A stretch of 46,161 bases of DNA from a plasmid, in assembly GCF_054482595.1 (NCBI RefSeq), contig NZ_JBTHVH010000006.1. One strand, written 5' to 3'. Made by a program: the position numbers. Positions 10,201 through 13,200 of this stretch are shown here, one piece after another (positions within the stretch are counted from its first letter, which is position 1; each line of letters starts with the position of its first letter).

Positions 10201-13200
10201 TGACATTCATTGTCAACGGCCATCAATTTATAAGCTGCTTTGCACTTCATAAAAGATCACCACCAGGGCTGCTAAAACAGTACCGATAGCCAGCACGTTA
10301 AAAAGTACGTCCTTCATCTTTACGAACGACATACTGATTTGCGTCCTTTCCCTTTTGTCAGCCTTCTCTATCATCCAGCGTTGGTATGAATCACTGTTAC
10401 TTTTTCTGTCCATGTTCCCCCCAATTCATCAATGAGCACCAGGCGGCCACCAGGCTTCTTGCCAACAAAGTAACGGCCTCGCGGCAGACGTTCGCCAGTC
10501 TTCAGCCGTTCGATCCAGTCCTGAAATGCAGGGCGCGGTTTATAGCTGTAGCGGCCAAAATCAGCTAAAGACTGCGTGACCATGACTGTTTGGCAGCCAT
10601 GCTTTCTCATATCACGAAACGTATTTTCCAGTGCAGCCAGTGTATTCATTTGCACGTTCTCTCTGCTTTTCCCATGAAGATATTAACGACACTCAAAACT
10701 AACACCGTTGGCATGATCACGGCAGCATAGCCGACAGCAACGGCCTGATATATGGTCAATGAGTAGTCGGGCTGTTTATACAATACGACTGAAAAAATGC
10801 TCCCCAAACAAGCAAGCAGAGTTAAAAACAAGTAATCGACAAATCTGTTTTTATAGATAACCCATGCAACGATGCAGGGATATGACACCAGGCACAGGAT
10901 AATCGCATTTGTGGTATGCACGTTTCGCTCCTTGTTATTTAAGGGTTGTCAGCCAGATCAAACAGATTGTTCAGGCTGGAACGGAATTGTTTTACCGATG
11001 ATACCAGCTCCTGACTCCGCGCTTTTTCCTGCGCCAGTTCACGCCGTAGCTGCGCCATCTCGTCTCTGTTACGCTGAAGCTCAAGGATAGCCGTCATAAA
11101 GGTTTTGCTGGCTGATGCCTGTCCGGTCGCTTCCTGCGCCTTTTTAATGGCCTGATCTTCGTCGTCATTCGTTCTGATTGTGTAATGCCCCATGATACCC
11201 CTCTTTTGCTGTCATTTTTGCGCTGCCGGCGCGAACCCGGGAAGAAACTTTGCTGGCAAAAAACACTGGCCAACAGATGTGACCGGGAAAATTTGCTGGC
11301 AATTAATTTTCGATGAAAGCCAGCTCGCAATCGCCGCATTCAATATTCAGTCCGGCTTTGCCCCACACGGCAGCGCCACACCCGCGACACTGATATTTAA
11401 CTTTATTTCGTTTTGGCTTGTCCTCAAATGCTGCAACTGACAAATCATTGTCATTGCTCCCGGCCATATCATCTGAATGGCTCCCGTTCTGCGGTGACAC
11501 TGACGGCAGCAGAGCCATAGAAAGCACCGCTTCTATATCAATCCCGGCCTCAGCATTTTGATGCGCCAGAGCAAGCGTTTCGCGCCATTGCTCTATTACG
11601 GCGGTCATATCTTTTTGTTGTTCGACCTGGACAGGGAAGCGATCAAACCAGCTCAAAGCAAATTGCCCCTGGAACAGTTCCAGTGTGACGCGCTGGAAGC
11701 GGCCACCAGGGATCGGATAGTCATTAATCTTCTGGCCGACTTTCGCACCACCAGGTCTCCCGGTGGAGGAGGGCATAAGTCCGATACTTTCCATTTTTGC
11801 CGCCCACTGCGCATTGTGGTACGTCTTACGCGACGGGTTGCCGTAGTGGTACTGCCACATATGGCACTGCTCATGAACCAGCGTTTGCATGACTTCAATA
11901 AGCGGGTACACCGGGAAGTATTCAGGATTGAGGGCGATTTCATCAATCATCCTGCCGCTGCCGTCAGCAGCAACAAAGCGCCTGTAACTGAAATAGCCCA
12001 TTGTGTTCTTGCCGCGCTGGAACGTAATCAGACAGTCAGGGAGTTCGCCGTCAAAAAGGCGCTGGTTATAGAAATCAAACGCCTGTTGTAGCTCGCTGTA
12101 AGCGCGTTCCGTGGCTCTTGTCATGCTGAAGTTCGCTTAGCGGCGTTCCGATATTCCTGTAACTCTGCAACAATAGCAGGGAACACATCAGCGCAACGCT
12201 GTGCCAGCTTAACCGCCTTTGAACAAACGCCCATACCATGTGCTCTTTTGAGCGCCTCCAACAAATCTACCAGTTCCTCGTCAGTGATTTTTTCAGTCAT
12301 CTATTAAGCTTCTCCATTATCTGTATCGTACGATACAGATAATATAAACCACACCTTTGATAGCGGCAATCTTTTTTGCTGGCAATTTCACGCCCAGGGC
12401 GGGCATCGAGCGGGTAATATTGCTGGCAAAAATCAACGGCCAAACCGGCTGCAGGAAACTGGTTTGCTGGCAAGCGTGATTTACTGCTGGGCTTGACACC
12501 TTGCCATTGTATGACGCTTGTTTTAGTGTCAAATGAACAACCAGCGCGAGAAGAATATAGGAAGCAAAAGCAATGGATATCAAACCTAACTCAGTGATCC
12601 ACCTGGAGCCAGGCGAAACATTACCCGGCTATACCAATCTGAAACCCGTACCTGATAAGTATTTCGATGAGTTAAAGGCACTCATAAATAAACTCAATAC
12701 TCAATCCGGTAATATTTACCTCAAGTTAAAACAGATGTACGCCTTTTTGGATCGTTTTAACAAAGAATTTGTGAGCACGTTTACCTCCTGTCAAAAGGGG
12801 TGCTCTTCGTGCTGTAAAATGGATGTTCATTTAACCGCGCTTGAGGCAACACATATTGCACAAGCAAGTAAACTTACTGCCAGAGACAACCCGCTTACGA
12901 CCGGGCATGAGTCAAAATGTCCGTTTTTGTCTGAGAAGGGAACATGCTCAATCTACAATTACCGCCCGCTGTTATGCAGGACATATCATGTACTCACTCC
13001 GCCGGAGATGTGTAATGACCTGGATGCACAAGTCATGCAGTATGGTTCTCAAAGCGCGAACATGGGAAATCACATCTACAAAACAATAGCAGAGTGGATC
13101 TATTTTCAGACGTATCACTGCACTGGTAAGTTAGAAACCAAAGATATCAGAGACTACTTCCCTTATCCCCGCGAAGATATCCAAAGATTTCTTCACCATA

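Follow-up and report, generated by a model that had tools for sequence, protein, structure and literature searches.

Mpr, a Spartan-type metalloprotease of IncX3 plasmids: regulatory surroundings, relatives on conjugative elements and candidate roles

The mpr gene and its product

The stretch of DNA analysed here (the window: 46,161 nucleotides, contig NZ_JBTHVH010000006.1 of RefSeq assembly GCF_054482595.1) carries mpr, the gene for a zinc metalloprotease, and this gene, its regulatory surroundings and its relatives are the subject of this report. Hundreds of IncX3 blaNDM plasmids of 46,161 bp from Escherichia, Klebsiella, Enterobacter and Citrobacter are 100% identical to the window over 1.8 kb around mpr. 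One matching record is typed as IncX3, MOBP and MPF_T, and its 57 annotated features include NDM-7, pir, a MobP1 relaxase, a VirB-type type IV secretion system (T4SS), hns and topB. Because of this match and the typed record, the window is taken to be the entire plasmid. This gene had an annotation and a name before the present analysis, and its identity is not new. RefSeq calls the product a 'SprT-like domain-containing protein', whilst other records label it a peptidase or 'zinc metalloproteinase Mpr protein'. The earliest description of IncX3 plasmids (2012) placed mpr in the load region among open reading frames (ORFs) of unknown function (PMC3630922), and in subsequent papers it serves as a reference point ('resistance region between umuD and mpr', PMC5061728). 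What is added here is the family-wide context of the gene and the conserved regulatory architecture around it. A preliminary description of this DNA had presented the locus as a SprT-like protease operon on a conjugative backbone. The backbone does encode a MobP1 relaxase, but the gene was one that had been named before. The gene and the parts of its product are placed as follows.

11303-12124, minus strand: mpr, ORF of a 273-aa SprT-like (Spartan-type) zinc metalloprotease, with a core at about residues 1-165, a helical or disordered linker at 166-240 and a C-terminal Cys4 zinc ribbon at 241-273
11861-11875, minus strand: codons of HEQCH, residues 84-88 (H84, E85, H88)
11327-11389, minus strand: codons of the Cys4 zinc ribbon (C246, C249, C263, C266), CxxC-x13-CxxC, residues 246-266

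The preliminary description had read a 273-aa protein with HEQCH and a C-terminal Cys4 motif as SprT/Spartan-type, and had named a profile search as the check. All of these elements are present, and the search returned a significant match to PF10263 (SprT-like; i-Evalue 2.9e-14, residues 12-116, model positions 1-97 of 108), the only Pfam family to exceed the threshold. The same family was found in 120 of 120 Mpr homologs among the matches listed. In an alignment of 36 homologs H84, E85, H88 and H103 are invariant. H103, 15 residues beyond H88, is the candidate third ligand: the spacing equals that of H115 and H130 in Spartan, and phmmer aligned H103 to Spartan H130. HExxH with a histidine at +15 is kept in all 118 full-length homologs retrieved, and CxxC...CxxC in 114 of them. 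Within the ribbon, C246 and C263 are invariant in the 36-homolog alignment and C249 and C266 are conserved at 90% or more. Moreover, Mpr is 89% identical to its IncX5 ortholog with a dN/dS of 0.053 (at a dS of about 1.0), and mpr is identical in more than 900 plasmids. The invariant catalytic residues, the retained Cys4 motif and the low dN/dS therefore point to an intact enzyme under strong constraint. From its sequence, Mpr is almost certainly a selected, catalytically competent member of the Mpr family with a Spartan-type core. A decayed or non-catalytic remnant, simply carried along by the backbone, would fit with the lack of a reported phenotype and with the place given to mpr among the unassigned load-region ORFs in 2012, but it is hardly credible for a gene whose catalytic and ribbon residues are intact across the family, whose dN/dS is this low and which is identical in so many plasmids.

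An AlphaFold (AF2) model of Mpr built from 36 homologs has a mean pLDDT of 81.8 and is confident in the N-terminal 160 and the last 33 residues, whilst residues 213-238 are disordered. The ribbon is modelled as three short strands (pLDDT >90), separated from the core by a partly disordered linker of about 75 residues and preceded by a basic stretch, KPKRNKVK. In fold comparison the metalloprotease subdomain was recognised, with Spartan as the closest fold (score 11.0, against 6.3 for IrrE). Searches of the PDB with the single protein or with a family profile gave marginal matches only: Spartan, with an E-value near 1, and a segment of an alpha/beta hydrolase, judged spurious. The link between Mpr and Spartan is based on Pfam and fold comparison. 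The ribbon bears a weak profile resemblance to generic small zinc-ribbon proteins (DUF1610, RPB12), and PHROGs places Mpr in an unnamed family, phrog_6361.

Several known proteins are similar to Mpr in part. Human Spartan (SPRTN) and yeast Wss1 are DNA-dependent crosslink proteases to which Mpr is about 21% identical, in the core only. The zinc module of Mpr is a tethered C-terminal Cys4 ribbon, whereas the zinc subdomain of Spartan packs beside the active site, and Mpr is without ubiquitin, PCNA and p97 interaction motifs. In E. coli SprT (YggI), too, a zinc ribbon follows the SprT-like protease domain. Mpr is approximately 100 residues longer than this protein and includes a variable linker and a conserved extension of 70 residues. 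Its ribbon gave no match to Pfam Zn_ribbon_SprT, and Mpr is found on mobile elements where SprT is chromosomal. The Mpr of IncN plasmids (pKM101/R46) is similar over its full length, with 41% identity over 270 aligned residues (BLASTP, E = 1e-69), and IncN plasmids annotated with 'mPR: putative metalloprotease' are matched at 95-99% query coverage in tblastn. It has the same three-part layout and a conjugative plasmid as host, and relatives in AFDB are named Mpr too. However, the IncX3 and IncX5 proteins form a separate clade. Their genes have hns-topB as neighbours, in contrast to ardB/ardK/ssb/mucAB in IncN, and, unlike IncN, a promoter and repeat system of their own. For the mpR gene of RA3 (IncU), whose product has been described as a putative zinc metallopeptidase and whose function is given as 'unassigned' (PMC7414963), the link to mpr consists of the name and that description only.

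The mpr operon, its palindrome and three repeat arrays

Upstream of mpr lies a small ORF that is translationally coupled to it, and the sequences flanking the two genes contain a predicted promoter, a palindrome and two of three arrays of a short repeat.

12121-12300, minus strand: 59-aa helical ORF coupled to mpr, its stop overlapping the mpr start as ATGA
12341-12369, minus strand: predicted sigma-70 promoter of the 59-aa/mpr operon, TTGCCG-17-TATATT, 9/12 in a consensus scan
12316-12343, no strand assigned: perfect 28-bp palindrome of ATTATCTGTATCGT and ACGATACAGATAAT (= ATTATCTGTATCGTACGATACAGATAAT), its arms 100% complementary and gap-free
12376-12473, plus strand: array B, exact copies of TTGCTGGCAA at 12376, 12420 and 12464, spaced by 44 bp
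11206-11302, plus strand: array A, in the intergenic space that separates mpr from the next gene, with TTGCTGTCAT at 11206 (degenerate) and TTGCTGGCAA at 11250 and 11293
37497-37593, no strand assigned: array C, CTGACAGCAA at 37497, TTGCCAGCAA at 37541 and TTGCTGGCGT at 37584, spaced by 44 and 43 bp

The motif TTGCTGGCAA occurs six times in the window against an expectation of 0.18, and none of 100 shuffles reached six. The preliminary description had placed three copies in front of the operon and had the protease gene coupled to a 58-aa ORF. The three copies are those of array B and the coupling holds, but the ORF encodes 59 aa and the motif is not confined to the operon, being found in three arrays with a site spacing of 43-44 bp throughout. 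Array B sits upstream of the operon -35, with its sites centred at about -46, -90 and -134 by arithmetic from the predicted promoter. An acceptable -10 follows only the operon-nearest copy, and an interpretation of the repeats as duplicated promoters was rejected on this ground. Array A overlaps a weak terminator-like hairpin at 11268-11284, and array C is placed between the leading-region operon (at its DnaJ-domain gene) and pir. A further set of tandem repeats upstream of pir (22 bp, GGTGAGAGGATTTTTCACGTAA-like, 38236-38360) is unrelated to TTGCTGGCAA and presumably represents replication iterons.

The palindrome has array B on one side and the 59-aa ORF on the other, and it overlaps the predicted -10 and the predicted start of the operon. 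It is unique in the window, and as RNA it would fold into a hairpin of -17.1 kcal/mol (z = -4.7). It is a candidate operator or 5'-UTR hairpin. It was also considered as a LexA box, but this reading was dropped: the half-sites (CTGTAT/ATACAG) fit, but the spacing is CTGT-N10-ACAG and not N8, which puts them 2 bp too far apart.

Phylogenetic footprinting of these sequences covered two lineages, IncX3 and IncX5. The intergenic flanks are only about 70% identical between them, yet all three arrays are kept, as are the TGCTGGCA cores and the distances between them, both promoter hexamer regions and the palindrome (with one change in the IncX5 copy). The IncX5 equivalent of array C has three sites at 43-bp spacing (pEclE4-4, 42443-42540). 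Within this two-lineage footprint, conservation of the palindrome and arrays amid such flanks argues for function, and the sequences suggest that arrays A, B and C make up a small backbone regulon. As far as our literature search went, the three-array system and the palindrome are apparently undescribed.

The genes around the operon are mostly small.

10939-11193, minus strand: ORF of an 84-aa helical (coiled-coil) protein, directly downstream of mpr
10646-10921, minus strand: ORF of a 91-aa membrane protein, a RefSeq CDS
10371-10655, minus strand: ORF of a 94-aa protein, a RefSeq CDS
12573-13223, plus strand: YkgJ-family cysteine-cluster protein, divergent from the operon and having a common intergenic region with array B

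The 59-aa ORF was found by tblastn in 937 plasmids, at 90% identity or above in all but two, and has no match in Pfam, NCBIfam, PHROGs or PADLOC. It is lineage-specific (IncX3 only) and not a conserved partner of mpr. Its slot in IncX5 is taken by an unrelated 77-aa gene that is also tightly coupled to mpr (4763-4996, minus strand, in one IncX5 record; 16832-17065, minus strand, in pEclE4-4). RefSeq names the product 'antirestriction protein ArdR', although it is unrelated to the 135-aa ArdR of IncN as well as to the 59-aa protein. A homolog of the 77-aa protein (472-723 of the record) lies 5 kb from a SprT gene on a Pseudomonas plasmid.

The 84-aa gene is co-inherited with mpr in both IncX3 and IncX5 (dN/dS 0.18), and is present in 1,039 plasmids, against 1,039 records (916+38+2+71+12) with an mpr-clade match of at least 60% identity. 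Its product is modelled by AF2 as a single long helix (pLDDT 85), is matched in PHROGs to an unnamed family only and is unrelated to IncN ArdK. A ribbon-helix-helix repressor was considered and rejected: the Pfam match was nonsignificant (DUF6290, E = 0.05), the PDB returned nothing and the AF2 model is one helix. By its position, the 84-aa protein is a candidate binder of the repeat arrays. NCBIfam, PHROG and PADLOC searches gave no family for the 91-aa and 94-aa ORFs, and the small neighbouring proteins in general have no NCBIfam or PADLOC family. A promoter scan found no promoter-like site between mpr and these downstream genes, and the 91-aa and 94-aa ORFs may belong to the same transcription unit as mpr. 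Past this block of small ORFs lies dqlB, a DinQ-like type I toxin gene (about 9471-9566, minus strand), which occupies the same place in IncX5. The YkgJ gene is missing at the equivalent IncX5 position. A RefSeq CDS for an 88-aa 'hypothetical protein' (12317-12583, minus strand) is probably a false call, because it starts with TTG in the YkgJ start region, overlaps the conserved repeats and palindrome and has no IncX5 counterpart. Further out, topB lies 1.6 kb from mpr in IncX3, and the plasmid hns is in the same neighbourhood.

Distribution and genomic context of the Mpr family

More than 1,600 full-length homologs of Mpr were found, in Proteobacteria and beyond. By tblastn, homologs are present in 2,675 of 72,556 plasmids (approximately 3.7%), and 2,222 of these 2,675 (83%) are predicted to be conjugative. 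Phage records rarely contain one (7/50,697), and all of the chromosomal contexts sampled include integrase, T4SS or partition genes. The Mpr family is therefore a widespread accessory of conjugative plasmids and integrative and conjugative elements (ICEs).

The neighbourhoods sampled all belong to mobile elements, and their composition differs from element to element. In IncN plasmids the order is ardB-mpr-ssb-ardK or mucAB-mpr-ardK. Three MOBF plasmids have the relaxase and coupling protein (T4CP) genes on one side of oriT and stbA-stbB-stbC followed by the SprT gene on the other; in R388 this stbABC-oriT sector houses the genes for establishment. In an IncP-like plasmid (TrfA, KorB) the genes that diverge from the relaxase operon begin with the SprT gene, which is near korB, incC, ssb and trfA. 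Pseudomonas and Chromobacterium ICEs contain it alongside HU, RdgC, DNA methylases and SSB, and further elements pair it with orphan methylases, ParB-like genes, KfrA and integrases. A distant IncX-like plasmid has the order T4CP-topB-hns-...-SprT-...-relaxase. Very often, then, the neighbours are oriT or genes whose products act on DNA that has just entered the cell (ssb, ardB/ardK, orphan methylases, rdgC, HU/H-NS, stbABC), and the recurrent context of the family is the sector of conjugative elements that handles newly entered DNA.

Some contexts also contain genes of DNA repair or damage tolerance. In IncN, mucA, mucB and mpr are contiguous on one strand (5145-7780 of the record). In IncX3 the resistance region splits a umuD remnant (about 45004-45360) from the mpr block. 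A SRAP-domain (YedK/HMCES-type) gene (15838-16509) lies 7 kb from the SprT homolog of a Chromobacterium integrative element. The load region beside the mpr module of the IncX5 plasmid pEclE4-4 (2709-9234) contains frmR, a class III alcohol dehydrogenase gene, fghA and a copy of uvrB. DNA-protein crosslinks are classically induced by formaldehyde, but these genes may be coincidental cargo assembled by IS26.

Such contexts bear on whether Mpr is damage-tolerance cargo of benefit to the host, digesting crosslinked proteins throughout the cell after aldehyde or oxidative damage so that translesion polymerases can bypass the peptide remnant. The contiguous mucA-mucB-mpr of IncN, the umuD remnant and mpr on either side of the IncX3 resistance region (PMC5061728), the SRAP-domain gene and the formaldehyde-detoxification genes with uvrB in one IncX5 plasmid are all consistent with this, and a historical link between translesion-synthesis genes and Mpr is possible. 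However, other IncN-like plasmids have mpr without mucAB, most contexts are without repair genes, about 11 kb of acquired DNA separate mpr from the IncX3 umuD remnant, which is truncated and convergent, and IS26 probably put together the IncX5 cargo. With a family almost restricted to mobile elements as opposed to core genomes, cargo of this kind is improbable.

The neighbours also bear on a regulatory role, in which Mpr would cleave a DNA-bound repressor of the plasmid or of the host (H-NS or LexA) in the manner of ImmA of ICEBs1 or IrrE/PprI of Deinococcus, and would thereby turn on genes of the plasmid. An HExxH metalloprotease paired with a small DNA-binding regulator is a known switch design, and mpr lies beside ardK in IncN, beside helix-turn-helix (HTH) genes in one element and beside the 84-aa coiled-coil protein and hns in IncX3. 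Across 16 contexts, however, no Xre-type or HTH neighbour is conserved, and the small neighbours are swapped between IncX3 and IncX5 whilst Mpr itself remains 89% identical. Mpr has no match to PF06114, the ImmA/IrrE family, and the fold scores given above put it much closer to Spartan than to ImmA/IrrE (PprI). A switch protease is thus quite unlikely.

Candidate roles of Mpr

A precedent for a role of Mpr is ArdC of the IncW plasmid R388, which combines a single-stranded DNA (ssDNA)-binding domain with a metalloprotease domain most similar in structure to Spartan and IrrE (PMC7213743). ArdC is needed in the recipient against type I restriction and is encoded in the establishment (leading) sector (PMC7213743). 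Both are plasmid-borne, Spartan-related HExxH metalloproteases. They differ in that a Pfam search found no ArdC-type N-terminal ssDNA-binding domain in Mpr, and in that the third ligand after HExxH is a glutamate in ArdC whereas Mpr has the histidine at +15.

By analogy with ArdC, we favour for Mpr a role in establishment through proteolysis of DNA-bound proteins, as a tentative reading that we hold at somewhat less than an even chance. The ribbon and basic linker would tether Mpr to DNA, and DNA binding would activate proteolysis as in Spartan. The 59-aa/mpr operon would be repressed in established cells and briefly de-repressed after entry into a new host, when Mpr could strip from the plasmid DNA those bound proteins that otherwise block establishment. 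Host restriction or defence complexes, or other tight nucleoproteins, would be the most plausible substrates, because of what has been proposed for the metalloprotease domain of ArdC (PMC7213743) and because of the genes that neighbour mpr. Stripping of this kind would amount to anti-defence by proteolysis, a mechanism different from that of ArdA and ArdB, which are DNA mimics. The coupling of IncX5 mpr to a gene with the RefSeq name 'ArdR' was counted in favour of a role in establishment, the name being a database label only.

The same proteolytic activity could instead be directed at covalent adducts of the plasmid's own enzymes, with Mpr removing TaxC relaxase stuck at the 5' end of the transferred or nicked strand, or trapped complexes of the type IA topoisomerase TopB, so that replication can proceed. 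Here the closest fold is that of a dedicated crosslink protease, and human SPRTN is described as proteolysing trapped TOP3A complexes (PMC10079683, PMC11513513). The proximity of topB to mpr and the order topB-hns-...-SprT, found in IncX3, IncX5 and the distant IncX-like plasmid, fit with this. All host elements examined are conjugative and therefore make a relaxase adduct, and the location of the gene beside oriT, seen in several plasmids, fits a relaxase-directed role equally with one in establishment. However, the hosts encode relaxases of unrelated classes (MOBP, MOBF and ICE types), topB is mostly missing (IncN, the MOBF plasmids, the IncP-like TrfA/KorB plasmid and several ICEs), relaxases normally release themselves through the reverse reaction, and no specific partner gene is conserved. 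Clearance of adducts is rather unlikely, though still a serious rival to the favoured role. Processing of relaxase adducts and anti-restriction activity, both put forward as mere possibilities in the preliminary description, remain the two leading hypotheses.

A nick-type sequence, TATCCTGC, lies at 33934-33941 (plus strand) just upstream of taxA/taxC. It is likely to be the oriT nick, whilst the 8-mer by itself is unspecific (8 matches against 4.5 expected). By the reasoning that applies to RP4-type MOBP systems, we infer that it is the plus strand that enters the recipient, in the direction of higher coordinates, and the minus-strand genes at 34189-37111 would therefore form the leading operon, which array C adjoins.

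Several observations weigh against a role in establishment. In the IncX3 plasmid mpr lies approximately 23.5 kb from the inferred nick, after pir, par and the resistance modules, and would not enter early; as a leading-region gene it was rejected here, even though its relatives often are. The orientation of mpr relative to oriT varies between plasmids, and expression from the incoming single strand is thus not a trait of the family. DNA binding by the ribbon is an assumption of the favoured model. The 77-aa 'ArdR' of IncX5 matches nothing in Pfam or NCBIfam, and NCBIfam and PADLOC have no family for Mpr itself. A literature search found no functional study of Mpr, the mentions for IncX3, IncN and RA3 being descriptive only and giving its function as unknown or unassigned, and no paper in which SprT and IncX3 appear together. 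SprT and mpr go unmentioned in a 2025 study that deleted hypothetical genes of IncX3; by its locus-tag numbering, it seems that the hns neighbour rs00140 was deleted and mpr was not.

Taken together, Mpr may be a plasmid-borne counterpart of Spartan that acts during conjugation, either by stripping restriction or defence complexes or by digesting the relaxase on the transferred strand, and that in IncX3 and IncX5 is tied to a three-array regulon (TTGC(TG/CA)GCA). In this full form the proposal is possible but on the doubtful side.

IncX3 plasmids are the main global carriers of blaNDM-5 and blaNDM-7, and the Mpr family, on about 3.7% of sequenced plasmids, extends to IncN and to many Pseudomonas, Acinetobacter and environmental conjugative elements. 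If Mpr is indeed a DNA-dependent establishment protease, a druggable zinc enzyme would be added to the targets against plasmid spread, the precedent of ArdC would be extended to a far larger family, and a Spartan-type enzyme of bacteria would gain a defined physiological setting.

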